A stretch of DNA of 64,000 nucleotides, from the NCBI GenBank assembly GCA_965232515.1, contig CBDDPY010000002.1, forward strand, positions 6,112,001 through 6,176,000, given 5' to 3'. A program made the position numbers and the translations under genes. Under the pieces are notes generated by a model. It saw only the letters and a list, made by a program, of their open reading frames with translations, was not told the DNA's origin and did not search any database. Of the stretch, positions 36,168 through 64,000 are shown piece after piece (the stretch's first letter is position 1; the number at the start of each line of letters is the position of its first letter). This DNA comes from Alphaproteobacteria bacterium. Lineage in GTDB: Bacteria > Pseudomonadota > Alphaproteobacteria > GCA-2731375.

Positions 36168-36383
36168 CTCGATATCTCCGTTCGCTCTCGTTCCTTCCAG
36201 CTTTGACATGTGGGAAGCGGTTGTTTCCGACCCGCATCAGCAACCGCGGATTTTGGTTTCAATTGTTAACGCTGCCGTCCGACGAGCCGAGCGCCTGATT
36301 TGCTATGGTGCTCGGACCTTGCGCCAAGGCCGGTTGCGCTGGCCTTCCGTGAGGCGTGGCATGTTGGCGGGAAAAGCAAAACC

Positions 36384-37550: not shown

Positions 37551-37603
37551 TGTTCCGGCGTCGCGCGCCGGATGGGAAAGAAGGGGACTGACGAGGTGAA
37601 AGT

Positions 37604-39174: not shown

Positions 39175-39181
39175 TCCGACG

Positions 39182-40524: not shown

Positions 40525-40602
40525 GCGCGAGCGGCGGTACAAATGGCTTGATCGCTTGTTTCGAGAAGTGCATATACACGTTTAGTGGAACGGAGCGACA
40601 AC

Positions 40603-41844: not shown

Positions 41845-41886
41845 CGTCAAAGCTCGTCCATACTCCCGGCCGAGGAGGATTGGACG

Positions 41887-42642
41887 ATGTCCGAGAACGT
41901 ACGTCTCGAACGGCAAGGCGACATCGCGGTCGTCACCCTCTGTCGGCCGCCGGCGAACGCGCTGGACCTGGAGGCGACCGACGCGGTCGCGGGGGTTTTC
42001 GCCGAGCTCGCCGCCGACGACGCCGTTGGCGCCGTGGTGCTGACCGGCGAGGGCAAAGCGTTCTGCGCCGGCCTCGATCTGAAACGGGTGCCGCACTACG
42101 GCGCGGAAGAGCAGGACCGCCTGCTGGATGCGCTGAACCGGGCCTTCTTCAACGTCTATCGCATGCCCGTGCCGGTCGTCTGCGCCGTCAACGGCCATGC
42201 CATTGCCGGCGGCCTGGTCCTGTTGCTCTGCACCGACAAGCGCATCGCCGCCGACGGCGATTATATGGTGGGCGTCACGGAAGTTCGCGTCGGCATACCC
42301 TATCCGTTGGGCGGTATCGAGGTCTGCCGCGCCGAGCTGGCGCCGGCTGACTTCCGGAACCTGGTGCTGTTCGGCCAGACCATCCAGCCGGCGCAGGCGC
42401 ACAAGATGGGGATCTTCGACGAGATGGTGTCGCAGGACCGCTTGTTGGACACGGCCATGGAGCAGGCTGAGATGCTGGCGCAGCTGCCGCGCGACGGCTT
42501 CCGCAAGATCAAGAGCCAGATGCGGTGGCCGGTCTTCGCGCAGATGCGCGCGGCCGTCGACGACAAGGCCGATCCGCTGTTCGGCGACTGGCTGTCGGAC
42601 GAGACCATGGAGGCCGCCGCCGCTATGCTCCGCGGCGGCTGA
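41887..42642 (+). CDS. Enoyl-CoA hydratase/isomerase family
   Basis: FCAGLDL, NGHAIAGG, EV.VGI; GAGGAGG RBS. Confidence 0.9.
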   Translation: MSENVRLERQGDIAVVTLCRPPANALDLEATDAVAGVFAELAADDAVGAVVLTGEGKAFCAGLDLKRVPHYGAEEQDRLLDALNRAFFNVYRMPVPVVCAVNGHAIAGGLVLLLCTDKRIAADGDYMVGVTEVRVGIPYPLGGIEVCRAELAPADFRNLVLFGQTIQPAQAHKMGIFDEMVSQDRLLDTAMEQAEMLAQLPRDGFRKIKSQMRWPVFAQMRAAVDDKADPLFGDWLSDETMEAAAAMLRGG

Positions 42643-46273: not shown

Positions 46274-47761
<1,488 letters not shown>

Positions 47762-47770
47762 GTTACCTTC

Positions 47771-49303
47771 CTATTCGGCGGCCGCCGCGCCGCCATCGTT
47801 CGCCTTCTTCATCCAGCTGTCCAGTGCCGCCGCTTCCGCCTCGCTCAGGCGCAGGCCCAGCTTCGAGCGCCGCCAGAGGATGTCGGCCGCGGTGCGCGCC
47901 CATTCGCGGGTCATGAGCCAGCGTGCCTCGGCCTCGGTCAGGTTCCAGCCGAAACGCTGGCCCAAGGCGTCGGCCGAGGTCGCATCGCCGAGCAAGTCGG
48001 CCGCCTGGGTGCCGTAGGCGCGGACCAGGCGGCGGGCCCAGGGCTCGTCGAGGAACGGGAACTCGGCGCGGAGGTGCTGGATCTGCATCGGGACACCGTC
48101 GACGGGGAAGTCGCCGCCCGGCAGCGGCGCGCCGGCGGTCCATGGGCCGCCCATCGACGGAAAATGGGCGGTCAGCTTTTCGAGCGCCGCTTCGGCGAGG
48201 CGGCGGTAGGTGGTGATCTTGCCGCCGAAGACGTTGAGCAACGGCGCGTCGCCGTCGGCGGCGTCGACCTGCAGGACGTAATCCCGTGTCGCCGCCGTCG
48301 CCGACGAGGCGCCGTCGTCGTAGAGCGGACGGACGCCGGAATAGGTCCAGACCACATCCTCGGCGGCTATCGGCCGGGCGAAGTATTCCGACGCGGCGGC
48401 GCGCAGGTAGTCCGCTTCCTCGGGCGTGCAGACGGCGGCGTCGGGCGCCGCGCCATGGTCCATGTCGGTGGTGCCGATCAGCGTAAAGTCGTCCTGGTAG
48501 GGGATGGCGAAGACGATGCGATTGTCGGCGTTCTGGAAGATGTAGGCGCGGTCGTGGTCGAACAGCTTGCGCACCACGATATGGCTGCCGCGCACCAGGC
48601 GGATGCTGGCCGGCGAATTTCGGCGCAGCTTGTTGCGGATGATGTCGTCGACCCAGGGCCCGCCGGCGTTGACCAGACCCCGCGCGCGTACTTCGCGCGT
48701 CGCGCCGCTGGCCAGGTCTTCCAGCGTCGCGCACCACAGGCCGTCGCGCCGTTCGGCCGAGAGGCAGCGGGTGCGCACGCGGATCTCGGCGCCGAGGTCG
48801 GCGGCCGCGCGCGCGTTCAACACGACGAGCCGCGAGTCCTCGACCCAGCAGTCGGAATATTCGAAGGCCTTGCGGAACGAGTCCTTCAGCGGCGCGCCGA
48901 CCGGATCCTGCCTCAGGTCGAGCGTCCTGGTCGCCGGCAGGATCTTGCGGCCGCCCAGATGATCGTAGATGAACAGGCCGAGACGCAGCAGCCAGGCCGG
49001 CCGCAGGCCGCCGTGGTGCGGCAGCACGAAGCGCATGGGCCAGGCGATATGCGGCATGGCGCGCAGCAGCGTCTCGCGCTCGATCAGCGCCTCTCGCACC
49101 AGACGGAACTCGTAATATTCGAGATAGCGCAGGCCGCCGTGGAACAGCTTGGTCGAGGCCGACGAGGTCGCCTGCGCCAGATCACCCTGCTCGCAGACCA
49201 GGACCCGCAAGCCCCGACCGGCGGCGTCCCGGGCGATGCCGCAGCCGTTGATGCCGCCGCCGACGATGACGAGATCGAATGTTTTGTCTGGCGTGTCAGC
49301 CAT
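47771..49303 (-). CDS. glpD: Aerobic glycerol-3-phosphate dehydrogenase
   Basis: GGGINGCGIARDAAGRG, TSSASTKLFHGGLRYLE, GGKITTYR. Confidence 0.96.
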   Translation of the reverse strand: MADTPDKTFDLVIVGGGINGCGIARDAAGRGLRVLVCEQGDLAQATSSASTKLFHGGLRYLEYYEFRLVREALIERETLLRAMPHIAWPMRFVLPHHGGLRPAWLLRLGLFIYDHLGGRKILPATRTLDLRQDPVGAPLKDSFRKAFEYSDCWVEDSRLVVLNARAAADLGAEIRVRTRCLSAERRDGLWCATLEDLASGATREVRARGLVNAGGPWVDDIIRNKLRRNSPASIRLVRGSHIVVRKLFDHDRAYIFQNADNRIVFAIPYQDDFTLIGTTDMDHGAAPDAAVCTPEEADYLRAAASEYFARPIAAEDVVWTYSGVRPLYDDGASSATAATRDYVLQVDAADGDAPLLNVFGGKITTYRRLAEAALEKLTAHFPSMGGPWTAGAPLPGGDFPVDGVPMQIQHLRAEFPFLDEPWARRLVRAYGTQAADLLGDATSADALGQRFGWNLTEAEARWLMTREWARTAADILWRRSKLGLRLSEAEAAALDSWMKKANDGGAAAAE

Positions 49304-50087
49304 GACCGCCGTCATCCGTCGGATCGCCGTCGGCGATCTCGATCGCGATGCCCGCACGCGCGCCGGCTTCTGCGAAGGCCGGCGGCGGCGGCCGGTCGGT
49401 GACGAAGGCGTCGATGTCGGCGAGCGTGCAGATGCGCACCGGGGCGTTGCGTTCGAATTTTTCGTGGTCCGAGACCAGGATGGTCTGCCGCGCATTGGCG
49501 ACGATGGCGCGGGCGACGGCCACCTCGCGCATGTCGTAGTCCATGATCGAGCCGTCCTCGTCCAGCGCCGAGGCGCCGATGACCGCGTAATCGACCTTGA
49601 ACTTGCGGATGAACTCCACCGCTTCATCGCCGACGATAGCGCCATCGGACTGCCGCACCATGCCGCCGGCGAGGATGATCTCCTTGCCCGGCGAGCCGGA
49701 GAGAATGTTGACCACGTTGATGTTGTTGGTCACCACGACCAGGTCGTGATGGCCGCGCAGGGCGTGCGCCACCTGTTCGGTCGTCGTGCCGATATTGACG
49801 ATCAGCGAGCAGCCGTTCGGGATCATGGCCGCGGCGCGTGCGCCGATGGCGCGCTTCTCGTCACGGGCCAGCGCCCGCCGTTCGGCATAGTCGACATTGG
49901 TCACGCTGGTGCCCAGCACCGCGCCGCCGTGCACGCGGGCGAGCAACCCGTTGAGGCTGAGCTCGTTCAGATCGCGCCGGATGGTCTGCGTCGTCACATC
50001 GAACGTCGTCGCCAGGTCGTCGACCATGACACGACCCTCGGCGCGTGCGCGCGCCATGATCTCGGTTTGACGTTCGTTGAGGTCCAT
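49296..50087 (-). CDS. glpR: DeoR-family glycerol repressor
   Basis: QTIRRDL, RVHGGA, NIGTTTE; overlaps glpD. Confidence 0.92.
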   Translation of the reverse strand: MDLNERQTEIMARARAEGRVMVDDLATTFDVTTQTIRRDLNELSLNGLLARVHGGAVLGTSVTNVDYAERRALARDEKRAIGARAAAMIPNGCSLIVNIGTTTEQVAHALRGHHDLVVVTNNINVVNILSGSPGKEIILAGGMVRQSDGAIVGDEAVEFIRKFKVDYAVIGASALDEDGSIMDYDMREVAVARAIVANARQTILVSDHEKFERNAPVRICTLADIDAFVTDRPPPPAFAEAGARAGIAIEIADGDPTDDGGHG

Positions 50088-50106
50088 GAGCGGTTGCTGA
50101 TTCAAT

Positions 50107-50188
50107 AATGTTCATTTAGAAAGATGTCGAAGTTCATATGAAATGCAAAACTTTCACTTGACGTAAAGCGAAAAATCAAATGAACATC
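50107..50188. promoter_or_regulatory. Divergent glp promoter region with candidate GlpR operators
   Basis: ATGTTCATTT (50108-50117) and AAATGAACAT (50178-50187) inverted; TTCATATGAA palindrome 50133-50142; TTGACG 50158-50163. Confidence 0.65.
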
Positions 50189-50246
50189 CGATAACCCGCA
50201 AAACGCGGGTCACTCCGCTTAGACGGACGCATTCAGGGAGGCAGAA

Positions 50247-51989
50247 ATGCGCACAGGTTTGATGTCGGCTGCCGCCGCGATGGCTTTTTTCGCGGGCATG
50301 CCGGCGGCCGTCGCGGACATGGCCGCGGCAGAGAAGTGGATCTCGGACGAGTTCCAGCCGTCGACCTTGTCGGCCGATCAGCAGAAGGCCGAGATGCAAT
50401 GGTTCATCGACGCGGCCAAGCCGTTCGCCGGCATGGAGATCAACGTGCTGTCGGAAACGATTCCGACGCACGAATACGAATCGAAGGTCCTGACCAAGGC
50501 GTTCGAGGAAATCACCGGCATCAAGGTGAACCACCAACTGCTCGGCGAGGGCGAGGTGGTGCAGGCCGTGCAGACGCAGTTGCAGACCGGCCGCAACCTC
50601 TATGACGCCTACATCAACGACAGCGACCTGATCGGTACGCATTCGCGCCTGCAGCTCGCGGTCAACCTCAGCGACTGGATGGCGGGCGAGGGCAAGGACG
50701 TCACCAACCCGATGCTCGACGTCGACGACTTCATCGGCAAGTCGTTCACCACGGGACCGGACGGTAAGCTCTATCAGCTTCCCGATCAGCAGTTCGCCAA
50801 TCTCTACTGGTTCCGCAAGGACTGGTTCGACCGCGCCGACCTGCAGGCGAAGTTCAAGGAGATGTACGGCTACGACCTGGGCGTGCCGGTGAACTGGTCG
50901 GCCTATGAGGACATCGCCGAGTTCTTCAGCGTGTACGTGAAGGAGATCGACGGCGTCCGCGTCTATGGCCACATGGACTACGGCAAGCGCGCGCCGGACC
51001 TCGGCTGGCGCATGACGGACGCCTGGCTGTCGATGGCCGGCGCCGGCTCGAAGGGCAAGCCGAACGGCGTGCCGGTGGACGAATGGGGCATCCGTATGGA
51101 GCCCGGCACCTGCAACCCCGTCGGCGCCAGCGTCAGCCGCGGCGGCGCCGCGAACGGCCCGGCCGCGGTCTACGCGATCCGCAAGTGGGACGAGTGGCTC
51201 AGGAACTACGCGCCTCCGGGAGCGGCGAGCTACGACTTCTACCAGTCGCTGCCGGCGTTGTCGCAGGGCAACGTGGCGCAGCAGATCTTCTGGTACACGG
51301 CCTTCACGGCCTCGATGGTGGCGCCGAAGGCCGACGGCAACAACACCGTCGACGACGCCGGCAAGCCGCTGTGGCGGATGGCGCCGAGCCCGCACGGCCC
51401 CTACTGGGAAGAAGGTCAGAAGCTCGGCTATCAGGACGCCGGTTCCTGGACGATTCTGAAGTCGACGCCGACAGACCGCGCCAAGGCGGCCTGGCTCTAT
51501 GCGCAGTTCGTGGTCTCGAAGACCGTTGATGTGAAGAAGAGCCATGTCGGCCTGACCTTCGTGCGCGACAGCACGATCCGGCACGAGAGCTTCACCGAGC
51601 GCGCGCCGAACCTGGGCGGCCTGGTCGAGTTCTACCGCTCGCCCGACCGCGTGCTGTGGACGCCGACCGGCATCAACGTGCCTGACTATCCGAAGCTGGC
51701 CCAGATCTGGTGGCAGCAGATCGGCGATGTGAACTCCGGCGCCTTCACGCCGCAGGAAGCCATGGACCGGCTGGCCAACGAGATGGACGTGACCATGGCG
51801 CGGATGCAGGCGGCCGACGAGGCGGCGAACGTCTATGGCGGTTGCGGCCCGCGGCTGAACGAGGAGCAGGATGCGTCCGTATGGCTGAACAAGGCCGGTT
51901 CGCCGAAGGCGAAGCTGGCGAACGAGAAGCCGCAAGGCGAGACCGTCAATTATGATGAGCTCGTGAAGCGCTGGGCTTCGGCCAAATGA
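50247..51989 (+). CDS. glpV: Glycerol ABC transporter substrate-binding protein
   Basis: FQPSTLS, SETIPTHEYES, PDQQFANLYWFR, NVPDYPKLAQ; glp context. Confidence 0.9.
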   Translation: MRTGLMSAAAAMAFFAGMPAAVADMAAAEKWISDEFQPSTLSADQQKAEMQWFIDAAKPFAGMEINVLSETIPTHEYESKVLTKAFEEITGIKVNHQLLGEGEVVQAVQTQLQTGRNLYDAYINDSDLIGTHSRLQLAVNLSDWMAGEGKDVTNPMLDVDDFIGKSFTTGPDGKLYQLPDQQFANLYWFRKDWFDRADLQAKFKEMYGYDLGVPVNWSAYEDIAEFFSVYVKEIDGVRVYGHMDYGKRAPDLGWRMTDAWLSMAGAGSKGKPNGVPVDEWGIRMEPGTCNPVGASVSRGGAANGPAAVYAIRKWDEWLRNYAPPGAASYDFYQSLPALSQGNVAQQIFWYTAFTASMVAPKADGNNTVDDAGKPLWRMAPSPHGPYWEEGQKLGYQDAGSWTILKSTPTDRAKAAWLYAQFVVSKTVDVKKSHVGLTFVRDSTIRHESFTERAPNLGGLVEFYRSPDRVLWTPTGINVPDYPKLAQIWWQQIGDVNSGAFTPQEAMDRLANEMDVTMARMQAADEAANVYGGCGPRLNEEQDASVWLNKAGSPKAKLANEKPQGETVNYDELVKRWASAK

Positions 51990-52021
51990 GGACGCCCGTC
52001 TAGAGGGCATCAACGGGCAAC

Positions 52022-52051
52022 GCGACGTCCGCGCCACGGCGCGGGCGTCGC
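52022..52051 (+). other. Intercistronic hairpin after the substrate-binding protein gene (mRNA stabiliser or partial terminator)
   Basis: gcgacgtccgcgc-cacg-gcgcgggcgtcgc, 13 bp with one G-U; no U-tail. Confidence 0.55.
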
Positions 52052-52071
52052 ACGCTCCCGAGTCGCACGAG

Positions 52072-53139
52072 ATGACGCTTGAATTCCGCAACGTTGTGAA
52101 GCGGGTCGGGGCCGAGACCCTGATCTACGAGACCTCGTTCGCGCTCGCGCCAACCGGTTTCAACGTGCTGCTGGGGCCCACCAACGCCGGCAAGACGACG
52201 CTGATCAAGCTGATGGCCGATCTCGAGAAGCCGACCGCGGGCGAGATCTGGCTGAACGGCGAGAACATCACATCAGTGCCGACGCGCAAGCGCAACGTCA
52301 GCCTGGTGCACCAGTTCTTCGTCAACTATCCCAACATGACGGTGTTCGAAAACATTGCCTCGCCGCTGCGGGTGGCGCGCGTGCCTGAGCCCGAGGTGCA
52401 GCGGCGGGTCGGCGAGGCGGCGGAGATATTGCGGCTGGGGCCGTACCTGCAGCGGCGACCGGCCGAACTCTCCGGCGGCCAGCAGCAGCGCACGGCGCTG
52501 GCCCGCGCGATCGTCAAGGAAAGCGGCCTGGCGCTGCTGGACGAGCCGCTCGCCAATTTGGACTACAAGCTGCGCGAGGAGCTGCGTGACCAGCTGCCGC
52601 AGCTCTTCGCCGGACGTCAGGCGATTGTCGTCTATGCAACGTCGGAGCCGTCGGAAGCGCTGATGCTGGGCGGGCATACGGCGACCCTGAGCGAGGGGCG
52701 TGTGACCCGGTTCGGCGAGACCGCGTCGCTCTATCGCGCGCCGGGGGATCTTGAAACCGCCAGTATCTTTTCCGATCCGCCGATCAACGTGGCGCCGATC
52801 GTCAAGACGGGGGGCGAGATTCGGCTCGGTGACGGCCCGCGCTGGCCGGCATCCGACGCCATCGCCGCGGCGCCCGACGGGGAATACGTCCTGGGCGTAC
52901 GGCCGCATTTCGTCTCGCCCATGGGCAGCGCCGAGGGCGTGCCAATCACCGGGCAGATCCAGATCACCGAGCTGTCGGGCTCGGAAAGTATCGCGCATTT
53001 CGATCTCGACGGGCGGCCCTGGGTGTCGCAGAGCCACGGCGTGCATCCCTATCGCGTCGGCGAGAGCCACGAATTCCATATCGATACGCGCGGCTGCCTG
53101 TATTTCCGGCCCGACGGGGCGCAAGTCGCGGCGGCCTGA
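52072..53139 (+). CDS. glpS: Glycerol ABC transporter ATPase
   Basis: GPTNAGKT, LSGGQQQR, DEPLANLDYKLRE. Confidence 0.9.
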   Translation: MTLEFRNVVKRVGAETLIYETSFALAPTGFNVLLGPTNAGKTTLIKLMADLEKPTAGEIWLNGENITSVPTRKRNVSLVHQFFVNYPNMTVFENIASPLRVARVPEPEVQRRVGEAAEILRLGPYLQRRPAELSGGQQQRTALARAIVKESGLALLDEPLANLDYKLREELRDQLPQLFAGRQAIVVYATSEPSEALMLGGHTATLSEGRVTRFGETASLYRAPGDLETASIFSDPPINVAPIVKTGGEIRLGDGPRWPASDAIAAAPDGEYVLGVRPHFVSPMGSAEGVPITGQIQITELSGSESIAHFDLDGRPWVSQSHGVHPYRVGESHEFHIDTRGCLYFRPDGAQVAAA

Positions 53140-53156
53140 GGCGGCGAGGGGGGCGG

Positions 53157-54239
53157 ATGGCGCGCATCGGTCTGCACGGACTTCGGCACAGCTATCTGCC
53201 GCATCCGCAGAGTCCCGCCGACTATGCGCTGAAACAGATCGACCTCGACTGGGAAGACGGCGGCGCCTACGCGCTGCTCGGGCCGTCCGGCTGCGGCAAG
53301 ACGACGTTGCTCAACATCATCTCGGGCTTGGTGACGCCGTCGGAAGGACGGATCCTGTTTGACGGCAACGACGTGACGGCGCTGCCGCCGGTCCGGCGCA
53401 ACATCGCGCAGGTCTTTCAGTTCCCGGTGATCTACGACACCATGTCGGTTTACGACAATCTCGCCTTTCCGCTGCGCAACCGTGGCGTCGACCGGCAGCA
53501 CATCGACGCCCGCGTGCAGGAAATCGCGCGCATGCTCGAGCTCGACGACATGCTCGGCCGGCGCGCGGCGGGCCTGGCGCCGGACGCCAAGCAGAAGCTG
53601 TCCATGGGCCGCGGCCTGGTGCGGGACGACGTCAACGTCATCATGTTCGACGAGCCGCTGACGGTGATCGACCCGCACCTGAAATGGAAGCTGCGCTCGA
53701 AGCTGAAGGAGCTGCACTACCAGGTCCGGGCGACGATGATCTACGTCACCCATGACCAGACCGAGGCGCTGACCTTCGCCGACCAGGTCGTGGTCATGCA
53801 GGAAGGCGAGGTCGTCCAGATCGGCACGCCGGTCGACCTGTTCGAGCGGCCGACGCATACGTTCGTCGGCCATTTCATCGGCTCGCCCGGCATGAATGTG
53901 CTGCCGTGCGAACTCCGCGACGGCGGCGCCTTCTTCAACGGCCAGCATGTGCCGACGGAAAACACGGGCGACGCGCCGGCGGGTGCGGCACGGCTGGAAC
54001 TCGGTGTCCGACCCGAATTCGTGCGTTTCGCCGACGCGGGCATTCCGGCCGATGTGGTCCGGGTGGCCGATGCCGGCCGCTATCGCGTGGTCGAGGCGCG
54101 AACCGGCGATGTGACGGTTCACGCATTGTTGCGCGAGGGCGAGTCGGCGCCCAGCGGGGCGACACATCTCAGCTTCGATCAGAGCCGCACCCGCGTTTAT
54201 GCGGACGGCTGGCTGATCGACGGCGTGGGCGGGGGCTGA
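53157..54239 (+). CDS. glpT: Glycerol ABC transporter ATPase (glpT of the glpSTPQUV nomenclature)
   Basis: GPSGCGKT, DEPLTVIDPHLKW, VTHDQTEA. Confidence 0.88.
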   Translation: MARIGLHGLRHSYLPHPQSPADYALKQIDLDWEDGGAYALLGPSGCGKTTLLNIISGLVTPSEGRILFDGNDVTALPPVRRNIAQVFQFPVIYDTMSVYDNLAFPLRNRGVDRQHIDARVQEIARMLELDDMLGRRAAGLAPDAKQKLSMGRGLVRDDVNVIMFDEPLTVIDPHLKWKLRSKLKELHYQVRATMIYVTHDQTEALTFADQVVVMQEGEVVQIGTPVDLFERPTHTFVGHFIGSPGMNVLPCELRDGGAFFNGQHVPTENTGDAPAGAARLELGVRPEFVRFADAGIPADVVRVADAGRYRVVEARTGDVTVHALLREGESAPSGATHLSFDQSRTRVYADGWLIDGVGGG

Positions 54240-54242
54240 GGC

Positions 54243-55109
<867 letters not shown>

Positions 55110-55119
55110 GGGCGGCCCG

Positions 55120-55920
<801 letters not shown>

Positions 55921-55932
55921 GGAGGACGGGCG

Positions 55933-56214
55933 ATGGGACTGGCATGGATGGCCTGGACATGGCCGACGGCGGCGTTCTTCGCCTTCATCGTGGTCTGCAT
56001 CTCGGTCATGGGCCTGCTGGAATGGCGCAGCCCCGGCGGCGCGCCGCGGCACGGCATTCTCGGGCTCGACACGACGCGCGGCGACCGGCTGTTCATCACG
56101 CTGCTCGGCTCGGCCTTCATCTTCCTGGCTTGGCTTGGCCTGGTCGGCACGCCGCTCTGGGGCGCGCTCGCCATCGCCGTCGCCTGGGGCGCCTTCGTGT
56201 TCTGGAAGGTCTAG
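55933..56214 (+). CDS. glpU: DUF2160 small membrane subunit
   Basis: WMAWTWPTA.FF, TTRGDRLFI.LL. Confidence 0.9.
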   Translation: MGLAWMAWTWPTAAFFAFIVVCISVMGLLEWRSPGGAPRHGILGLDTTRGDRLFITLLGSAFIFLAWLGLVGTPLWGALAIAVAWGAFVFWKV

Positions 56215-56222
56215 CCCCGGAT

Positions 56223-56969
56223 CTAGATTACGGATTTGGCGATCAGAACGACGGAACTCGTCGCGGCGATGACGAGCATCAGATTGCGGGCCATCCTGTC
56301 AGAGATTAAGCCGCGGCATAGGCGTGCGAGCACATAGCCCGCGATCAGGCCCGGTATGAGTGACAGGCCGAGAAGAAACTCAAGCTTTCCGAACAGATTC
56401 TCCGCATAGAGCGACGCCAGCGACAGAACGCTGCCAATCACGAATATCAAGGCGATTGTCGCGTGCGCCCGGGCCGGCTCCGCCCGTTGATAGAGAACGG
56501 CGAGCGGCGGGCCGTGAATGCCGGAAAGAGTACCCATGAGCCCCGCGCAGAAGCCGCCCACGCCGGATGCGGTGCGGGACTGACGCGGTGCGAAACCGAA
56601 CTGCCCGAGGACGATCGCCGTCAGCACAATGCCACCGAAGGCCAGCCCGAAGGACGATGGCGAAAGCGCGCCGAGCAAAAGCGCGCCCGCGACCGTTCCG
56701 ACACAAAGTCCGGGCAAGAGCGTTGCCAAGCCGTTCTTGTCGATATGGCGCCGCGCCTTCGCGACCATGGCGAGGGACAAAAACAGCATCACGAACAACG
56801 ACGGTCCGGGTGCATAGGTCGGATCGATGAGCACCAGCAGCGGCACCGCGATCATGGCGAATCCGATGCCGGCCGATGCCTGCACGAAGCCCGCAACGAC
56901 GACGATGAGATTTGCCAGCAGAATTTCGAACATCGTGCCGGTCGGCATCGCGGCAAGCGATACGATCAT
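56223..56969 (-). CDS. TauE/SafE (TSUP) sulfite exporter family
   Basis: GFVQASAGIGF, GLMGTLSGIHGPP; about 8 TM helices; ATGA overlap with the upstream PLP enzyme. Confidence 0.88.
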   Translation of the reverse strand: MIVSLAAMPTGTMFEILLANLIVVVAGFVQASAGIGFAMIAVPLLVLIDPTYAPGPSLFVMLFLSLAMVAKARRHIDKNGLATLLPGLCVGTVAGALLLGALSPSSFGLAFGGIVLTAIVLGQFGFAPRQSRTASGVGGFCAGLMGTLSGIHGPPLAVLYQRAEPARAHATIALIFVIGSVLSLASLYAENLFGKLEFLLGLSLIPGLIAGYVLARLCRGLISDRMARNLMLVIAATSSVVLIAKSVI

Positions 56970-58003
56970 GAATGCGTTGATCCGGCCAACTGGTCGGCGT
57001 AACCGAACAGCGCCGGTTGGCCACCGGTATGCCAGAACAAGATTCGCCGGCCTGCAAGCCCGCTCGTCCGTGCCAGCTCGATCAGGCCGGCCATCGTCTT
57101 GCCGGTATAGACCGGGTCGAGAAACAGGCCCTCGCGCTGCGCCGTCCGTTCGATCGCATCCGTCGTGGCGTCGTTGAGCCTGCCGTATCCGGGCGCGAGC
57201 GTGCCGTCGAACATCCTGATGTCAGCCTCGCCGACCGCTACCTGCAGTCCGGTCAGATTGCCGAGATCGTCAGCACGTTGCGCAACACGCGCTGCTTGGG
57301 CCGTTGCGCCACGGCGCACGCAGATGCCGCGCACCGGGATATCCAGACCGAGCGCGCGCAGACCGTACAGCAAACCGGTGTGGGTGAGCGCGCTTCCCGA
57401 GGCGACGATGATCTCGTCCAGCGCCTCGATCGTCGCAAGTTGGGCGGCAAGCTCCTTGGCGGCCAGAACATAGCCCAACGCGCCCAACGGTGGACGGTCC
57501 GCCGCCAGCGGGATGACGTAGGGGCGCTGGCCACGCGACCTCAGCTCGCCGGCAAGCGCCGCCACGGCGGCGTCGGCGCCGGCCTCGTCCTCGCCCTCGG
57601 GATAGCTGTGCAGCACCGCGCCCAACAGCCGGTCGAGCAGCACGTTGCCATTACTTCGGTATACGTCGCTGACATCCGGGACGCGCTCCTCGAGCTGGAT
57701 GTGACAGGCCATGCCGAACCGACGCGCCATGGCCGCGGCCGTGCGGACGAAGTTCGACTGGACGGCGCTGGTGATCAGAATGGTATCGGCCTGTTCGGCC
57801 AGCGCCGCGCCGAGATAGAACTCGAGCTGGCGCACCTTGTTGCCGCCAAACGCCAGCCCGGTACAGTCGTCGCGCTTCACATACAAGTCGAGTCCCAGCT
57901 CGGCGCCGAGATTGGCCAGCGGTTCGAGCGGCGTGGGCGTATGGGCCGCCCGCGCGCGCGGAAACGGGCGCAACGCCCTGTCGATAAGGTCAAGTTCGGC
58001 CAT
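56966..58003 (-). CDS. D-cysteine desulfhydrase/ACC deaminase/CuyA-family PLP enzyme (paralog 1)
   Basis: PTPLE, KRDDCTGLAFGGNKVRQLE, QSN, LDPVYTGK, FWHTGG. Confidence 0.92.
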   Translation of the reverse strand: MAELDLIDRALRPFPRARAAHTPTPLEPLANLGAELGLDLYVKRDDCTGLAFGGNKVRQLEFYLGAALAEQADTILITSAVQSNFVRTAAAMARRFGMACHIQLEERVPDVSDVYRSNGNVLLDRLLGAVLHSYPEGEDEAGADAAVAALAGELRSRGQRPYVIPLAADRPPLGALGYVLAAKELAAQLATIEALDEIIVASGSALTHTGLLYGLRALGLDIPVRGICVRRGATAQAARVAQRADDLGNLTGLQVAVGEADIRMFDGTLAPGYGRLNDATTDAIERTAQREGLFLDPVYTGKTMAGLIELARTSGLAGRRILFWHTGGQPALFGYADQLAGSTHS

Positions 58004-58066
58004 GGCGAAAACTCCGTTGCGTCCGGGGCGCTTTCTGGTCGACGCAAACGTCGCTACCTTGCGGCC

Positions 58067-59092
58067 ATGAATCAAGAACGCATTGCCGAGCTCGAGCGCC
58101 GATTGGCGCGCCACCCGCGTGTAGGTCTGGCGCGGCTGCCGACGCCGCTCGAGCCATTAACGCGGCTGACGGAACACCTCGGCGGGCCGCGGCTGTGGGT
58201 GAAGCGCGAGGACGAGACCGGTCTCGGCTTCGGTGGCAACAAGCTGCGCAAGCTCGATTTCGTCCTGCGCGAGGCGATCGATGCCGGCGCCGACACGCTG
58301 GTGTCCGGCGGCGTGGTGCAGTCGAACAGCCAGCGGCAGGTCGCGGCGGCAGCGGCGAAGCTGGGGCTCGGCTGTCATCTCGCCGTCTATCACGGCCGGG
58401 TGGCGCCGCCGACCGCTACCTATGAGACGTCGGGGAACGCGCTGCTGAACCGGCTCTACGGCGCGGTGCTGCACGACATCCCCTGGACCGGCGACCGCAA
58501 CGGCGCGATCCGCGATCTGGCCGACCGGCTCTCGGCCGAGGGACGCCGTCCGTTCGTCGTGCCCTATGGCGTGTCGGATGGGCTCGGCGCGGTCGGCTAT
58601 GCGTCGACGATGGCCGAGATCGCCCGACAATGCGACGCATTGGGCTTTACACCGCACGCTGTGGTGCATTGCTCGGGTAGCGGCGGCACCCAGGCGGGTC
58701 TGGTGCTGGGCGCGTCGGTGGCCCTGCCGCAGGTCGACATCGTTGGCATCGACATTGACGCCGAGCCCGAACGCGTGCGCGACGATGTCTGCCGCTATGG
58801 CGCGGCGGGCGCTGATTTGCTCGATGTGGCGTTCGCGGCCGACCGCGTCGAGGTCGTCGCCGGCCATGCCGGTCCTGCCTACGGCGTGCCGCACGCGGCG
58901 ACCGCCGACGCCATCAGGCTCGCCGGACGGCTCGAAGCGCTGGCGCTCGATCCGGTCTATTCGGGCAAGGGTTTGGCGGGTTTGATCGCGCTGATCGGCG
59001 AGGGCCGTTGGACGCCGGACGACGACGTCGTCTTCATCCATACCGGCGGCGCGCCGTCGCTGTTCGCCTACGAGGCGGCGCTGGCGCTGTGA
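58067..59092 (+). CDS. D-cysteine desulfhydrase/ACC deaminase/CuyA-family PLP enzyme (paralog 2)
   Basis: PTPLE, KREDETGLGFGGNKLRKL, QSN, SGSGGTQAG, LDPVYSGK, FIHTGG. Confidence 0.92.
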   Translation: MNQERIAELERRLARHPRVGLARLPTPLEPLTRLTEHLGGPRLWVKREDETGLGFGGNKLRKLDFVLREAIDAGADTLVSGGVVQSNSQRQVAAAAAKLGLGCHLAVYHGRVAPPTATYETSGNALLNRLYGAVLHDIPWTGDRNGAIRDLADRLSAEGRRPFVVPYGVSDGLGAVGYASTMAEIARQCDALGFTPHAVVHCSGSGGTQAGLVLGASVALPQVDIVGIDIDAEPERVRDDVCRYGAAGADLLDVAFAADRVEVVAGHAGPAYGVPHAATADAIRLAGRLEALALDPVYSGKGLAGLIALIGEGRWTPDDDVVFIHTGGAPSLFAYEAALAL

Positions 59093-59658
59093 GCCCGACT
59101 TCGCAACCCAGGTTCGAGGCGGTCGACCCCGACCGCTGGGACGACCTCGCGCGCCTGTTCGAGTCGCGTGGCAGCCCGCATTATTGCTGGTGCATGGCCT
59201 GGCGAGAGAAGCCGCCCGGATTCAAGCAAGCCGACGCCAAGGACCGGAAGGCCATGCTGAAGGCGGCCATGTGCCAGCGCGTCGCCGACGGCGTGCCGGT
59301 CGGCATCCTTGGCTATCGCGGCGACGAGCCGATCGCCTGGTGCTCGATTGCGCCGCGCGCGACCTATCGGTCGCTGGGCGGACCTGCCGAACCGGGAGCC
59401 GAGGACGCGGTCTGGTCGGTCGCCTGTTTCTTCGTCAAGCGCGCCTATCGCGGCGAGGGCATGATGCACCGGTTGCTGGAAGCCGCCACTGCCCACGCCC
59501 GCCGGCAAGGCGCCCGGATCGTCGAGGCCTATCCGGTCGATCGGGATTCGCCGAGCTACCGGTACATGGGCGTCGTCGATATCTTCCAACGCGCTGGCTT
59601 CGAGCGTGTCGGCACAGCCGGCAGCCGGCGCCACGTCGTGCGCCTTGCGCTCGACTAA
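59089..59658 (+). CDS. GNAT acetyltransferase with CWC motif
   Basis: CWCMAWR, GILGY....PIAWCSIAPR, WSVACFFV, VEAYPVD; GTGA overlap. Confidence 0.88.
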   Translation: MSPTSQPRFEAVDPDRWDDLARLFESRGSPHYCWCMAWREKPPGFKQADAKDRKAMLKAAMCQRVADGVPVGILGYRGDEPIAWCSIAPRATYRSLGGPAEPGAEDAVWSVACFFVKRAYRGEGMMHRLLEAATAHARRQGARIVEAYPVDRDSPSYRYMGVVDIFQRAGFERVGTAGSRRHVVRLALD

Positions 59659-59670
59659 CCCGCCACGGGC

Positions 59671-61386
59671 CTATCCTGACGGCCAGCGGACGCGGCGACT
59701 GGTGGGGAAGCCGTGCATGCCATTGCTGGCGAAGGCGTAGGCGTTCGAGCGCAGCGGATCGCCGCTGACGACCAGCAGGATGTCGGTCGCGCGTTCGACG
59801 ATGGGCACCAGACGGGCGGGGTCATCGTTCTCCGCGAAGATTGGGGCTGCCTTGCCGGCCGCGACCAGATCGTTGAGCGTCGGCCGGCCGGGCACCAGGT
59901 TCGACCAAGGGCCGATATAGGTCTCGAGCTTCTCGGCCGGCAGGCGGGCGTGCCGGAACAGGCCGTCGCGCACATCGGCCTTGGTCAGGCCGGCGCGGGT
60001 CAGCGTCCGCGCCACCATCGGGCTCAACACCAACAGCGGGCGGTAGGTGCCGGGCGCGAAGCCGGCGGTGAAGACGAACTCCCAGCTGGTCTGCCGCACC
60101 AGGCCGTCGGCGAGGTAGGCCAGGATTTGCTCGGGATCCTTGCCGTAGATCGACCCGACCGTGCCGCCGGCGGTGAAGCGGCCGATGGTGACGACGCTGT
60201 CGTCGGGCGCGAAGCCGCGGTCGGTCCCGAAGGTCGGCCAGCCGAGCGCGGCCGCCGCCGGCTCGTGCTCGGCCAGCACGACCCGGAAGGTATGGCCGAA
60301 GGTGCTCTTGTCGGCCGCGCCCGGCAGGAAGCCGGCGACGTTGCGTTGGAACAGACGCAGAAACCGGCCGACGCTGGTGTTGGCGCGATAACCGTCCCGC
60401 AGCGCGCCGTTCTCGCAATTGAAGCCGAGCCGGCCAATGGCGGGGCCGCTCAATATGACCAACGCGTCGCCGCCCGTGGTGTCGCCGCTGTGCTCGATGC
60501 CGTAGCCGGGATCGGCCAGCACCTCGGCGATGGCGACCAGCACCGGCATGTATTCGGGCCGGCAGTTCGCCATGACGCCGTTGACGGCGACATTCATGAC
60601 GGTGGCGGCGGCGCCCGAGGGCTGCAGCACGCCGATTACGCGGTCGGGCGCGTCGTCAGTCTGCGCGAGGAACGCGGCCACGCGGTTCCGCGTGGGCGGC
60701 ACGATGGGCAGGCCGTCGCTCCACTGCTTTTCCTCGAAGATCCGGTTGATCTCGTCGAACGCGCCGCGCGCGACGATGCCGTCGCTCGTGGTCGGCGCCG
60801 GTTCGTTTCGGGGTGTTGGCGTTTCCGTCAGGCAGCGGACCACATCGGCGACGGTGACGGCCTCAACATTGCGTGTGAGTTCGTCGTCACCCTGGCCGTC
60901 GACATGGCCGACAAGGCGGGCGACCGGCAGATCGGCGATGCCGAGGCCGCCGCAGATCGCGCCGGCCTGGCCGATGAAACCGTCGCAGACCAGGGACGCC
61001 GTGGGAATGCCGGCCTTTTCGACAACCGCGCTTGCCCGCATCACGGCGGGCGTGCACGCGCCTCAGCAGCCGACGCCGGAAACGACCGCGTCTATGCCAT
61101 GTTCGCGCAGGCGGTCGGGCAGGGCCGCCAGCACCGCGTGCTCGTCGCCGCCGAAGGTCGACCCGAAGGCCTCGTGGCCGACGAAGCGCACATCCTTGGC
61201 CGAGGCTGCAAGGGCGTCGGCGATGACCGGGAAGATCTCGTCGCCGCGGAACATATCGTCCCAGACAAAGGCGATGGTCTTGCCGTCGAGCGAAGATGGT
61301 CGCGGCGCCGGCGGTACGGCCGGTACGGCCAGCGCGCCGCCCGGCCACAGGGCGGCGAATTCTTCAGACGATGTCGGATCGCTCAT
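59671..61386 (-). CDS. UGSC-family-like selenoprotein, 571 aa, Sec108 encoded by TGA at 61063-61065
   Basis: Tracked ORFs 61063-61416 and 59671-61044 share a frame and are separated only by TGA plus six sense codons: SGVGC-U-GACTPAVMRASAVVEKAGIPT; AAGGAG RBS before ATG 61386; WSDGLPIVPPT domain; true stop is TAG. Confidence 0.88.
61027..61065 (-). promoter_or_regulatory. Candidate bacterial SECIS hairpin of the UGSC-type gene
   Basis: After UGA: GCCCGC(+12..+17)-CGUGAU-GCGGGC(+24..+29); lower stem CGCGU/GCGCG. Confidence 0.7.
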
Positions 61387-61412
61387 TGGCGTCTCCTTGG
61401 GCTTGGCGACAG

Positions 61413-62198
61413 TCACGCCGCGCGGCTGCCGAGCAGGCCGCCGTCGGTCAGCGGCTCGATCGGCCCTAGGTCCCGGTGGTGCTTATGGTCGGGGCGGGCG
61501 GTCTTGCGGTAGGCGTTCGAGACCGGATTGACGATCAGCGAGAAGATCGCCCGGTCCCAGGGCGACATGTTCACGGGCGATCCGTGCAGCAGCGTGTCGA
61601 CGAAGATCAGCGCCGTGCCCTTCTTGCCGGTCGCGGCGACGATACCGTGCGTGTCAGCAAGGTCTCGGACCAGCGGCTCGTCGACGACCCAGAGCGGATA
61701 GCTGGTCGTTTCCTCATCGAGCCTGGTTTCGTGGCTGCCGTAGGCGTGCGAGCCGGGGATGAAGTAGAGCGGTCCGTTCAGGTCGGTGACGTCGTCGAGA
61801 AACACATGCAGGTTGAGCGCCAGGGGTTGCGGAACGCCGTCCTCGGCGTGGTGGGTGGCGAAATCGTAGTGCCACTGCCAGACCTCGCCGGAAAAGGCCG
61901 CCTTGACGTTGACCTTGACCTGCTGAACGTAGAGCGGCTCGGGGCGGATCTGCCGGGCCGGTTCGATCAGGCGCGGGTCGCGGACCAGCCTGGCATAGAG
62001 ATCGTCCCGCAGATGCAGGCCCATGGCCGTGCGCACGGCGCCAGACGCCCGCTCGACGATGTTGCCGGGATGACCGTCGGCGAACAGCGCCGGCAGCCGC
62101 GCCGCGAGCGCGTCGGCCTCGGTCTCGGAAAACAGGTCGGGCAGGATCAGAAAGCCCTGCCGTTCCAGGCGCTGCAGTTCCGTGGCCGAGAGTTTCAT
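61413..62198 (-). CDS. PhyH-family Fe/2OG dioxygenase (ectoine/proline hydroxylase-like)
   Basis: KVNVKAAFSGEVWQWHYDF, NGPLYFIPGSH, LLHGSP.N.SPWDR. Confidence 0.9.
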   Translation of the reverse strand: MKLSATELQRLERQGFLILPDLFSETEADALAARLPALFADGHPGNIVERASGAVRTAMGLHLRDDLYARLVRDPRLIEPARQIRPEPLYVQQVKVNVKAAFSGEVWQWHYDFATHHAEDGVPQPLALNLHVFLDDVTDLNGPLYFIPGSHAYGSHETRLDEETTSYPLWVVDEPLVRDLADTHGIVAATGKKGTALIFVDTLLHGSPVNMSPWDRAIFSLIVNPVSNAYRKTARPDHKHHRDLGPIEPLTDGGLLGSRAA

Positions 62199-62290
62199 GG
62201 GGCTGACCCTTGCCTTGTCGATCAGGTGCGACGGACTTGATTTTCCCGACATGTCTTGCGCAAATCAAATCATCGCTGCTATTCGCTGGG

Positions 62291-62304
62291 ATAGAAATTC
62301 TATA
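62291..62304. promoter_or_regulatory. LysR box candidate (palindrome, T-N11-A) just before the lysR start
   Basis: ATAGAA-A-TTCTAT perfect palindrome in the divergent spacer. Confidence 0.6.
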
Positions 62305-62308
62305 CCTT

Positions 62309-63196
62309 ATGAAACGCCGACTACCGCCGCTCAACGCCATTCGCGCCTTCGAGGCGGCCGCCGAGCATGAAAGCTTCGCGGTCGCGGCGGGCGAGTTGGG
62401 CGTGACCAAGGGCGCGGTCAGCCAGCAGGTCCGCGCGCTGGAGGACTATCTCGGATCGCCGTTGTTCGAGCGCCAGGCGCGGGGCCTGCGCCTGACCGAC
62501 GCCGGCCGGCAGTATCATTCGGCCGTGCGCAGCAGCCTCAATACCCTGGAGCGGGCGACCGCGCGCTTCGTGCCGCCGCAGACGCGGGCGACGCTGAAGC
62601 TCAGTGTGCTGCCGGCCTTCGCCTCGATGTGGCTGGTACCGCGTTTCACCGCGTTCCAGGCCCGGTACCCGGGCATTGACGTGCAGCTGTCGGCCAATGC
62701 CGAGATCGTCGACTTCGATCGCACCGACGTGCAGGTCGGCATCCGCTACGGCGCCGGCGGCATGACCGGCGGCGGTGTGCATTCGCTGGGGCTCGACAGA
62801 CTGTTTCCGGTCTGCGCGCCGGCCTATGCCGACGCCCAGGGGTTGCGCACGCCGGCCGACCTGGCCGACTGCCGCTTGCTGCATGACACCTATTGGCAGG
62901 ACGACTGGCACCGCTGGGCCGAGGCGGCGGGTGTCGAGCTGCCGAACCGGCACACGGGTCAGTATTTCACGCACTACAGCATGGCCGCGGATGCCGCGCG
63001 GGCCGGGGCCGGCGTGCTGATCGGCCATGAACGCCTGCTGGCGCCGGCGCTTGCATCAGGCGAGTTGGTGCGCTTGCCCGGTCCGGAGATCGAGGCGGCG
63101 GACGCCTATTACGTGGTCTATCCGCGGCGGTGCGCGCACGTCGCCGCGGTCAACGACTTCGTCGCCTGGCTTCGCGACGCTTTTGAAGTTTCCTAG
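62309..63196 (+). CDS. GcvA-like LysR regulator
   Basis: MKRRLPPLNAIRAFEAAA..ESF..AA.EL.VT.GAVSQQVR.LE, FAS.WLVPR. Confidence 0.92.
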   Translation: MKRRLPPLNAIRAFEAAAEHESFAVAAGELGVTKGAVSQQVRALEDYLGSPLFERQARGLRLTDAGRQYHSAVRSSLNTLERATARFVPPQTRATLKLSVLPAFASMWLVPRFTAFQARYPGIDVQLSANAEIVDFDRTDVQVGIRYGAGGMTGGGVHSLGLDRLFPVCAPAYADAQGLRTPADLADCRLLHDTYWQDDWHRWAEAAGVELPNRHTGQYFTHYSMAADAARAGAGVLIGHERLLAPALASGELVRLPGPEIEAADAYYVVYPRRCAHVAAVNDFVAWLRDAFEVS

Positions 63197-63744
63197 TTGG
63201 CGACCTTGATCAGGCGACCCTTGGCCGTGCGAACCGGCTCGCCGTCGACGGCGCGGACGAATTCGAGCTCCATGCCGGTGCCGGACAGCGTCCGGCGATA
63301 GACCTGGACCTCGTAGCCGCCGTCGGGATTGATCTGCAGCGCATTCACCACCAGCGTGCGTTCGCGGATGTGGGCCCAGATATAGGGGACGCCGCTGGTC
63401 AGCGGATCGCGCGCATCGACCGAGCGCCAGACACCGGGCCGTTCGGCGCGAAACTGCACGGTGGTCGATTTCAACTCCTCGGCCGGGTTGTTGGGGTCGC
63501 CCTTCTGGCGCTGCACCGTGTTCCAGGTCAGCGTGAAGCCGTCGCCCGACGGCTTGACCGTGACGCCGATGTCGCGGCTGGTGAGCTGGAAATAGAGGCT
63601 GATGGCGCTTTCGGATACGGCGTTGCCCTGCCACTGTCCGAAAAACGCCGCAATGTTGAGATCCGCCGCCCGCGCCGGCCCGGCGACAACAACAACAGTG
63701 AAAACAGTACCAACGAACCTACGAAGCCAACCCTTCGGACGCAT
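63193..63744 (-). CDS. Exported hypothetical protein
   Basis: Signal peptide ending ARA-AD; beta-rich mature region; start uncertain. Confidence 0.72.
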   Translation of the reverse strand: MRPKGWLRRFVGTVFTVVVVAGPARAADLNIAAFFGQWQGNAVSESAISLYFQLTSRDIGVTVKPSGDGFTLTWNTVQRQKGDPNNPAEELKSTTVQFRAERPGVWRSVDARDPLTSGVPYIWAHIRERTLVVNALQINPDGGYEVQVYRRTLSGTGMELEFVRAVDGEPVRTAKGRLIKVAN

Positions 63745-64000
63745 TGCAGCCCCACGCTCTGTTACGACCCCGGCCGGAGTGTAGCCGATGGCGGAGCCAG
63801 CGGACAGTCGTCGATCAAGTAGCTCATGCAATGCGGGACAGCAGATTCGCTCGTTGACGCGCGATATCTGATCTTACCGGATTCACGATCCGTTACTTTT
63901 GCCCGCGACCATACATGTGTCGGAATGGTGACACGGCGAAGAATAGTCGACGCCGAACACCTTGACGCTATTGCAATTGCGGGACGGAATATTGCATCTT

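Follow-up and report, generated by a model that had tools for sequence, protein, structure and literature searches.

Ever since the Sargasso and Global Ocean Sampling (GOS) surveys, UGSC-containing proteins have been counted with the most abundant selenoproteins of prokaryotes. The GOS metagenome analysis of Zhang and Gladyshev (2008, PMC2398784) lists them in this way too; its Table 2 gives 255 such genes in 37 samples, for which a UxxC motif is noted but no domain was known, and a thioredoxin (Trx)-like fold was guessed. The same paper described a "UGSC/Unknown_1" fusion, with an alignment of Unknown_1 in its supplementary Fig. S1A. The UGSC family is listed in reviews of 2022 and 2026, the latter placing it with selenoproteins of largely uncharacterized function, and the literature found under the family name consists, judged by titles, of selenoproteome surveys or reviews. 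The locus described here lies in a 64,000-nucleotide stretch (the window) of the Alphaproteobacteria bacterium assembly GCA_965232515.1 (contig CBDDPY010000002.1, positions 6,112,001 to 6,176,000), and its central gene encodes a predicted selenoprotein of 571 aa. In this paper the protein is compared with the UGSC family and with GrdB and PrdB of the clostridial glycine, betaine and proline reductases, and its gene with those surrounding it.

The selenoprotein gene is situated on the minus strand (59671-61386), in a frame open from the ATG at 61386 to the stop codon at 59671-59673 and containing a single TGA, at 61063-61065, whose translation as selenocysteine (Sec, U) gives residue 108 in the C-U-G-A-C motif of GVGC-U-GACTPAV. 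The redox motif was located in 32 of the 35 related loci obtained from other genomes, the codon at the Sec position being TGA in 19, TGC or TGT in 12, and TAC in one. In the tblastn comparison with these loci a single high-scoring segment pair (HSP) crosses the TGA position, and when the protein is aligned with 15 full-length homologues from the database, the Sec column holds Cys in 14 of them and Tyr in one. Of 8000 candidates scored, 3479 are homologues at E<=1e-3, which makes this a large family, and in a tree of 32 of its proteins, from which L026, L029, L030, and L033 were left out as partial, the Cys clade is set apart from the Sec clade. Since the TGA aligns with TGA or Cys codons in the homologous loci, and since a hairpin following it is kept in the Sec loci, the comparison indicates that the in-frame TGA is neither chance nor error and that the predicted selenoprotein is genuine, in agreement with an earlier first-pass annotation made from the sequence alone. 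The Tyr-encoding homologue (protein P0034, L019:8306 region), with TAC in GVGC-Y-GACT, may depend on the Cys just before this position, if it is active at all.

If the TGA were a true stop codon, or the gene a pseudogene, the locus would give an N-terminal fragment of 107 aa and, from GTG 61044 onwards, a separate protein of 457 aa. Open reading frames (ORFs) of this kind can be drawn at 61063-61416 and 59671-61044, and there are database homologues of ca. 455 aa beginning just past the TGA, as gene callers yield from a Sec gene. Such a reading is hardly credible, however, in view of the alternation of TGA and Cys codons at this very position, the protein similarity running across it in one HSP, and the preservation of the hairpin at synonymous sites in TGA-bearing genes only; it would moreover split the U-x-x-C redox motif.

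The hairpin, resembling a selenocysteine insertion sequence (SECIS), was found by fold prediction and comparison of the loci at 61028-61061 on the minus strand; its inner stem (61034-61051), GCCCGC/GCGGGC with the loop CGUGAU, begins 11 nt past the UGA. The inner stem is fully paired (6/6) in 17 of the 19 Sec loci vs none of the 13 Cys/Tyr loci, and counting single positions of the stem, 107 of 114 are paired in the former and 49 of 78 in the latter, while the encoded peptides are nearly alike. As it is conserved at synonymous positions in the Sec loci only, we regard this hairpin as a putative SECIS element of the bacterial type. Scanning the whole window with Rfam at gathering thresholds gave no match, the presence of a bacterial SECIS model in Rfam being unchecked.

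The N-terminal part of the protein (residues 13-187, encoded at 60826-61350 on the minus strand, with the pair U108-x-x-C111) corresponds to the Pfam UGSC domain PF24696 (E 9e-25), at 88.2 bits against a cut-off of 25 and over these residues only, whereas the NCBIfam UGSC equivalog model NF041046 scores 40.2 bits, below its cut-off of 125. The predicted selenoprotein is therefore a UGSC family member at the domain level and not an equivalog. It shares with the family the U-x-x-C pair, the existence of Cys-containing homologues and the Pfam domain. Canonical members, however, have a U/C-G-S-C motif and are ca. 150-170 aa long, in contrast to the U-G-A-C motif, the length of 571 aa, and the second domain found here.

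The same domain is related to part of another selenoprotein, GrdB. When the TGA of a grdB gene found in locus L034 is read as U, its product (...ILTST-U-GTCTRCGATLVKELERAGLPTAHVC) and the window protein (...VSGVGC-U-GACTPAVMRASAVVEKAGIPTASLVC) are alike, and BLASTP aligns the two pairwise with E 0.005, Sec on Sec. The Pfam UGSC model also finds GrdB, at residues 333-415, with E 0.0014, below threshold. Comparison with hhalign of 107 family members with 32 GrdB sequences gave a probability of 94.5% and E 7.6e-8, the Sec columns being aligned within a span of 112 columns (UGSC 72-189 vs GrdB 326-439); a 21-sequence alignment compared with one GrdB reached a probability of just 16%, so that the homology claim rests on the deeper alignments. 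These profile comparisons show that the UGSC domain and the C-terminal module of GrdB which bears Sec are homologous, a relationship that is new here and bears out the "reductase-like" character ascribed to the selenoprotein in the first-pass annotation. It differs from the Trx-like fold guessed in 2008 (PMC2398784). GrdB/PrdB and the window protein thus have in common an alpha/beta module in which Sec occupies the same column and precedes G-x-C-T and E-[KR]-A-G-[IL]-P, and both carry a U-x-x-C redox pair. A thioredoxin-type reductant, as used by the Grd system, would also serve the window protein, to judge from the trxB neighbours described below. They differ in that GrdB/PrdB possess the GRDB catalytic domain, whereas the window protein has the unrelated Unknown_1 domain and an aerobic-type alphaproteobacterial host. 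No gene for GrdA, the pyruvoyl partner GrdE/PrdA, or GrdC/D was found in the Pfam scan of the 51 genes of the window.

The L034 locus, from an uncultured Rhodospirillaceae, carries a glycine/sarcosine/betaine reductase cluster (L034:10166-13503) ca. 0.5-4 kb from its UGSC/Unknown_1 gene. Its genes encode GrdC-beta (529.8 bits, the cut-off being 450), a fragment of GrdA, and a GrdB in which residue 364 corresponds to an in-frame TGA. Among the loci scanned, L034 is the only one in which GrdC-beta, GrdA, and GrdB occur near a UGSC fusion gene, and Grd genes in an alphaproteobacterial metagenome-assembled genome (MAG) are unusual in themselves. In the consensus of database GrdB sequences (P0271-P0336) the Sec column is occupied by W (STWGTCT). 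It seems that in the prediction of many of these sequences TGA was translated as Trp, which would be an artefact of annotation.

The first-pass annotation had missed the second domain, ca. 380 aa lying behind UGSC (residues ~204-571, encoded at 59674-60777 on the minus strand). This C-terminal part gives no Pfam match even at E<=10 and has no NCBIfam model, while used alone as a query it finds 4087 representative clusters at E<=1e-3. It carries the motifs WSDGLPIVPPT, AVNGVMAxCRPEYMP, and EHSGDTTG, and its Cys275 (codon 60562-60564) is nearly invariant in 107 sequences. Compared by eye, residues ~266-325 share the motifs AVNGVMAxCRPEYMP, YG(V/I)EHS, and FN, with the conserved Cys, with Fig. 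S1A of PMC2398784, where the Unknown_1 motif reads AVNGVMAGCRPEYMP...YGVEHS-GNTPG; the pattern ...HS-G.T.G and C275 are both found in the window domain. By these motifs the predicted selenoprotein is the UGSC/Unknown_1 fusion noted in 2008, i.e. a new member of a described, uncharacterised family.

AlphaFold2 models were built from alignments of 107 and 89 sequences and have a mean predicted local distance difference test (pLDDT) score of 95.2 and a predicted template modelling (pTM) score of 0.94 for the full length, and a pLDDT of 94.9 for the C-terminal domain. The modelled N-domain is a parallel alpha/beta unit in which C-U-G-A-C lies where a strand ends and a helix starts. A Foldseek search of PDB with the full model returned a sole match at E<=1e-3, the ketoreductase 2fr0, whose template modelling (TM) score of 0.17 reflects the Rossmann-like N-domain only. 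For the C-terminal domain two matches at E<=1e-3 pointed to the class I fumarate hydratase fold, which was rejected at a TM score of 0.21-0.24, a root-mean-square deviation of 17-18 A, and a Foldseek probability of <=0.80. When the family alignment was used as a profile against the PDB sequences, the only match was at chance level (PdxY, E 0.14), and the look-alikes of the C-terminal domain in the ESM Atlas were clusters without annotation, apart from one in which 41% of the members carry UGSC. In two proteins of more than 1200 aa (P0191 and P0204) Unknown_1 is found together with pentapeptide or copper-amine-oxidase N-terminal repeats.

As judged from gene and domain arrangement, Unknown_1 is tightly coupled to UGSC, with which it is fused in both orders or encoded by an adjacent gene. 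The reverse fusion, Unknown_1 followed by UGSC, is found in P0215, P0217, and P0252, which end at the profile position expected for Sec. In 6 of the 10 plasmid regions viewed each domain has a gene of its own, the two lying side by side, the hosts being haloarchaea, Roseovarius, Variovorax SRS16, and Paracoccus ferrooxidans. On plasmid pFER4 of the last-named species a Sec-type stand-alone UGSC gene (L045:3881-4450) is annotated as two small ORFs for hypothetical proteins, split at the TGA, and lies directly upstream of the Unknown_1 gene, with selB ca. 3.3 kb downstream on the same plasmid (L045:8853-9855). In P0269 the place of UGSC is taken by the catalytic (beta) domain of ferredoxin:thioredoxin reductase (61.3 bits), fused to Unknown_1. 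In 4 of the 10 plasmid regions the gene row also includes trxB or a gene for a Pyr_redox_2 protein of ca. 300 aa, and in Sporomusa a different FAD oxidoreductase is encoded directly downstream.

From the domain fusions, the adjacent genes, the trxB neighbours, and the P0269 fusion we infer a relay in which electrons would pass from NAD(P)H through a TrxB-like flavoprotein to UGSC (U/C-x-x-C) and on to Unknown_1, with Cys275 and the substrate. The U-x-x-C pair would cycle between the selenol/thiol and the selenenylsulfide, either feeding electrons to a substrate or an oxidised Cys in Unknown_1 or acting as the nucleophile for it, and would be re-reduced by an NADPH-dependent flavoprotein of the thioredoxin reductase type encoded elsewhere in the genome. 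The selenoprotein most likely acts, then, as a thioredoxin-type reductase. The Trx-dependent single-Cys reductases (MsrA/B, ArsC, and 3'-phosphoadenosine 5'-phosphosulfate (PAPS) reductase) provide a functional working analogy only, since they likewise combine one conserved catalytic Cys, a CxxC/UxxC redoxin, and a TrxB-like flavoprotein encoded in one operon, whereas no sequence or fold similarity between them and the selenoprotein was detected.

The selenoprotein gene is one of seven, located between 56223 and 63196, whose order and strands were established by translation, family scans, and direct reading. The gene order, the strands, and the 26-bp gap reported in the first-pass annotation were correct in every particular, and its gene identities hold. 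The G+C content is ca. 65-70% at 56-63 kb of the window, which makes lists of raw ORFs noisy. Preceding the selenoprotein gene on its strand is the gene for a PhyH-family Fe(II)/2-oxoglutarate (2OG) dioxygenase (61413-62252, with an alternative start at 62198; Pfam PhyH E 2.2e-30). Its stop codon is separated from the selenoprotein ATG by 26 nt (61387-61412), and AAGGAGA, as a ribosome-binding site, precedes this ATG. Divergent from the PhyH gene, across 56 nt, is a plus-strand gene for a LysR regulator (62309-63196, its start read from the sequence; HTH_1 and LysR_substrate domains), which scores 301.9 bits with the NCBIfam GcvA subfamily model NF008352, above the cut-off of 288. The imperfect palindrome ATAGA-AAT-TCTAT, read directly in the LysR/PhyH intergenic region (62291-62303, no strand), is a possible LysR box. 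A consensus scan of 55800-64000 found no sigma-70 promoters (1.1 expected), and a scan of the same segment gave 4 terminator-like sites vs 4.9 expected, which is uninformative.

The PhyH protein resembles the free-amino-acid hydroxylases of the EctD/GriE type by sequence similarity, with the H-x-D...H iron triad visible in its sequence (WHYDF...LLHGS). Its PDB relatives are 7dzz (2.8e-50), EctD 4mhr (2.1e-39), and the leucine hydroxylase 5nch (3.2e-39), the common PhyH fold thus being shared with EctD and the leucine 5-hydroxylase GriE at E 2e-39 and 3e-39. EctD differs in having an ect gene context and an equivalog score, neither of which applies to the window protein: it scores 158.4 bits with the NCBIfam ectoine hydroxylase model TIGR02408, below the equivalog cut-off of 336.5, and no ect genes were found among those scanned in the window. 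The nearest solved relatives (the 7dzz group) are labelled "Phytanoyl-CoA dioxygenase" only, and a literature search by PDB code returned no relevant paper on the substrate of 7DZZ, 7E00, 7DT0, or 8H7T. By this resemblance the PhyH enzyme would hydroxylate a small free amino acid or a zwitterionic solute.

The PhyH and selenoprotein genes are probably co-transcribed under the LysR regulator, as suggested by the 26-nt gap, the AAGGAGA site, the retention of the pair in locus L001, and the presence elsewhere of a TauD oxygenase gene upstream. A GcvA-type LysR would then control a two-gene operon running from PhyH to the selenoprotein, whose substrate would probably be tied, in this lineage only, to the amino-acid-like substrate or product of the hydroxylase.

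The remaining four genes form two pairs. The TauE gene (56223-56969, minus strand; Pfam TauE E 2.7e-30, 106.2 bits) follows that of the pyridoxal 5'-phosphate (PLP) lyase 1 (56966-58006, minus strand; PALP E 7e-44), the lyase stop codon overlapping the TauE start (ATGA). The PLP lyase 2 gene (58067-59092, plus strand; PALP E 4.8e-37) is divergent from that of lyase 1 and 60 nt away from it, and its stop overlaps the start (GTGA) of the gene for a GNAT acetyltransferase (59089-59658, plus strand; Acetyltransf_1 32.5 bits vs a cut-off of 20.7), which converges on the selenoprotein gene with 12 nt between the stop codons. Both lyases belong to the D-cysteine desulfhydrase/1-aminocyclopropane-1-carboxylate deaminase/CuyA family. 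In NCBIfam lyase 1 attains neither the CuyA cut-off (333.6 bits vs 450) nor that of D-cysteine desulfhydrase (275 vs 429), its best solved relative being a D-cysteine desulfhydrase in PDB (3.6e-68); the best match of lyase 2 is CuyA (NF052482), with 317.0 bits vs 450 for a query starting at 58157 and thus missing the first 30 residues. The TauE/SafE-family protein, by its family a putative exporter of anions of the sulfite type, adjoins lyase 1 only and not lyase 2.

CuyA and CuyZ are reportedly a cysteate sulfo-lyase and its sulfite exporter, known from work on Ruegeria pomeroyi. The PLP lyase 1-TauE pair looks like this arrangement for cysteate desulfonation, consisting likewise of a lyase of the D-cysteine desulfhydrase family and an overlapping gene for a TauE-family exporter. 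Lyase 1 differs from CuyA in falling short of the equivalog score, and D-cysteine or another beta-substituted amino acid is an equally possible substrate. The pair would remove a sulfonate or sulfide group and export the anion, while lyase 2 and GNAT would constitute a paralogous lyase with an acetyltransferase.

The conservation of the neighbourhood was assessed by tblastn of the window proteins against the 35 related loci, about one third of which have short flanks, gene absence being unproven for those. PhyH and LysR were each found in one locus, the same one (L001), the two PLP lyases in L033 only, with the copy of lyase 2 there being 87% identical, and TauE in none. The contigs of L001 and L033 overlap and come from a single MAG; its selenoprotein is ca. 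90% identical to that of the window, and the two loci carry little independent weight. In L033 GNAT is absent, the selenoprotein gene and that of lyase 2 being ca. 50 nt apart, and lyase 1 is followed by DeoR and GlpD in place of TauE.

These results bear on the proposal of the first-pass annotation that all seven genes make up one Se-dependent amino-acid/organosulfur pathway. The seven genes are contiguous, the coupling within each pair is tight, and PLP enzymes (a GntG-family aldolase and an aminotransferase) accompany an oxygenase-selenoprotein pair in L005, L007, and L010. Yet the joint recurrence which that annotation had suggested looking for is confined, among the 35 loci, to the single ca. 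90%-identical MAG, a relative lacking the GNAT and TauE genes at this place and having DeoR and GlpD after lyase 1; moreover, the units run in four separate transcription directions and lyase 1 with TauE can be explained alone as a CuyA/CuyZ-like pair. A single conserved pathway is accordingly very unlikely, and the caveat of the same annotation, that the PLP/TauE half might be a mere neighbour, was well founded.

The genes around other members of the family were surveyed with Pfam in 158 proteins from 31 loci, the three rows of L001, the near-identical relative covered by tblastn, being left out of a total of 161. In the Cys clade a gene for an AraC regulator (cluster C5) abuts the UGSC/Unknown_1 gene in 11 loci, 9 of them confirmed by Pfam, and an acyl-CoA ligase gene follows in 3 loci. 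In the Sec clade each gene context corresponds to one lineage. In one of these (L005, L007, and L010) a TauD-family Fe/2OG oxygenase gene lies 31 nt upstream of the selenoprotein gene and itself follows a gene for a GntG-family PLP aldolase (327.7 bits vs a cut-off of 230), with genes for an FMO-like monooxygenase and an aminotransferase converging from the other side. In another (L008, L024, L027, and L032) the selenoprotein gene follows a ProX/ChoX-like ABC importer of the betaine type, and in L023 a third kind of 2OG oxygenase is encoded 4 kb away. LysR regulators flank 5 of the 10 plasmid loci; family III CoA-transferases are encoded in three plasmid loci, and aconitase X (AcnX) with DUF126 in two, the latter being the Sporomusa termitida (L038) and Vibrio europaeus (L040) plasmids, where the two genes lie beside fused UGSC/Unknown_1 genes. 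Some AcnX enzymes are cis-3-hydroxy-L-proline dehydratases, and such neighbours would fit a hydroxy-amino-acid theme. Other loci present housekeeping contexts, namely IMPDH/rsmB and guaA in L009, guaA in L030, and pheS/rplT in L004.

Two independent events placing an oxygenase directly upstream, in about a dozen contexts, are more than we should expect by chance, thin as this evidence is, and they hint at zwitterionic amino-acid or betaine-like substrates. The pairing of dioxygenase and selenoprotein, to which the first-pass annotation had drawn attention, stands insofar as a TauD gene occupies the corresponding place in one other lineage, while the partnership with PhyH itself is confined, among the 35 loci, to L001.

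A different explanation would have the selenoprotein as a stand-alone housekeeping-type reductase, acting in repair or detoxification like Msr or Prx, with PhyH adjacent by accident and forming a unit of its own with LysR. It agrees with the 60-70% identity of the selenoprotein across many alphaproteobacterial families in which the neighbours vary, with the location of several loci among the housekeeping genes named above (L009, L030, and L004), and with the listing of UGSC proteins among the most abundant ocean-metagenome selenoproteins (PMC2398784). The PhyH gene, however, is on the same strand at a distance of 26 nt, a second, independent oxygenase adjacency of 31 nt exists, and the regulators, AraC in 11 Cys-clade loci and LysR in 5 of the 10 plasmid loci, are of the kinds that typify substrate-induced catabolic genes. 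We consider this explanation somewhat unlikely.

We give an even chance to the reading of the region as a mosaic of three units (LysR divergent from PhyH and the selenoprotein, lyase 1 with TauE, and lyase 2 with GNAT), including the redox mechanism of the selenoenzyme outlined above. Several observations speak against it. The folding energy of the hairpin is ordinary for its G+C content (z-score -0.38), and in a consensus fold of 20 Sec genes none of the 12 pairs shows a compensatory change (0/12). Neither Sec machinery (selA/selB/selD or tRNA-Sec; 0 tRNAs) nor a TrxB-like gene was found in the 64-kb window, with its 51 genes scanned by Pfam. The homology between UGSC and GrdB is limited to ca. 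112 columns, the Pfam GRDB model (PF07355) does not match the selenoprotein at E<=10, and the GRDB domain proper, of ca. 350 aa, is absent. Unknown_1 has no confident relative of solved fold in the Foldseek search of PDB, which makes its chemistry a guess. An oxygenase stands directly upstream in just one other lineage (3 of the 31 loci scanned), and the housekeeping-gene neighbours of several loci argue against an obligatory hydroxylase partner. Finally, the accessible text of the 2022 and 2026 reviews holds no experiments on family members.

A more specific proposal, which we regard as rather improbable, goes beyond the mosaic reading in making the selenoprotein an aerobic counterpart of the clostridial glycine/betaine/proline reductases that would reductively cleave a C-N (or C-O/S-O) bond in a hydroxylase-primed zwitterionic substrate. 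The substrate would be ectoine-, proline-, or betaine-like, made or primed by the Fe/2OG hydroxylase, the electrons would come from thioredoxin reductase, and the Sec module of GrdB type would act on the substrate domain, Unknown_1, to which it is joined.

Other parts of the window are separate from this locus. Upstream of TauE a glycerol/glycerol-3-phosphate cluster (46277-56214), comprising an FGGY kinase, a GlpD-like protein (DAO and DAO_C), SBP_bac_1, two ABC ATPases, two permeases, and DUF2160, marks the left boundary of the region but has no relation to it. On the other side a 212-aa ORF (63193-63831, minus strand), whose N-terminus resembles a signal peptide and which falls into no family of Pfam or NCBIfam, is conserved, at 87% identity, beside LysR in L001. 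An acyl-CoA cluster at 36300-42639 encodes an acyl-CoA dehydrogenase, a thiolase-like protein with a ChsH2-type OB-fold partner, a MaoC dehydratase, an HpcH/citrate-lyase-like aldolase, an MFS transporter, and an enoyl-CoA hydratase, and resembles gene sets for side-chain or dicarboxylate degradation. The segment 22484-29370 contains a row of BatA/DUF4159, DUF58, and MoxR-type AAA_3 genes (an "aerotolerance" Bat-like operon) and a 692-aa protein without any Pfam family.

The seven-gene "pathway" is the less important part of the finding, being a lineage-specific juxtaposition. The homology to the GrdB Sec module, the coupled Unknown_1 partner domain, and the probable electron path from TrxB-like flavoproteins are testable handles, and since Cys-type orthologues lie beside AraC in the culturable Roseibium aggregatum, Parasedimentitalea maritima, Bradyrhizobium, and Tardiphaga, the function is open to genetics and inducer screens. 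If reductive C-N cleavage proved true, it would account for the oxygenase, PLP-aldolase, and betaine-transporter genes that recur nearby and would give an abundant orphan selenoprotein of the ocean a substrate class.

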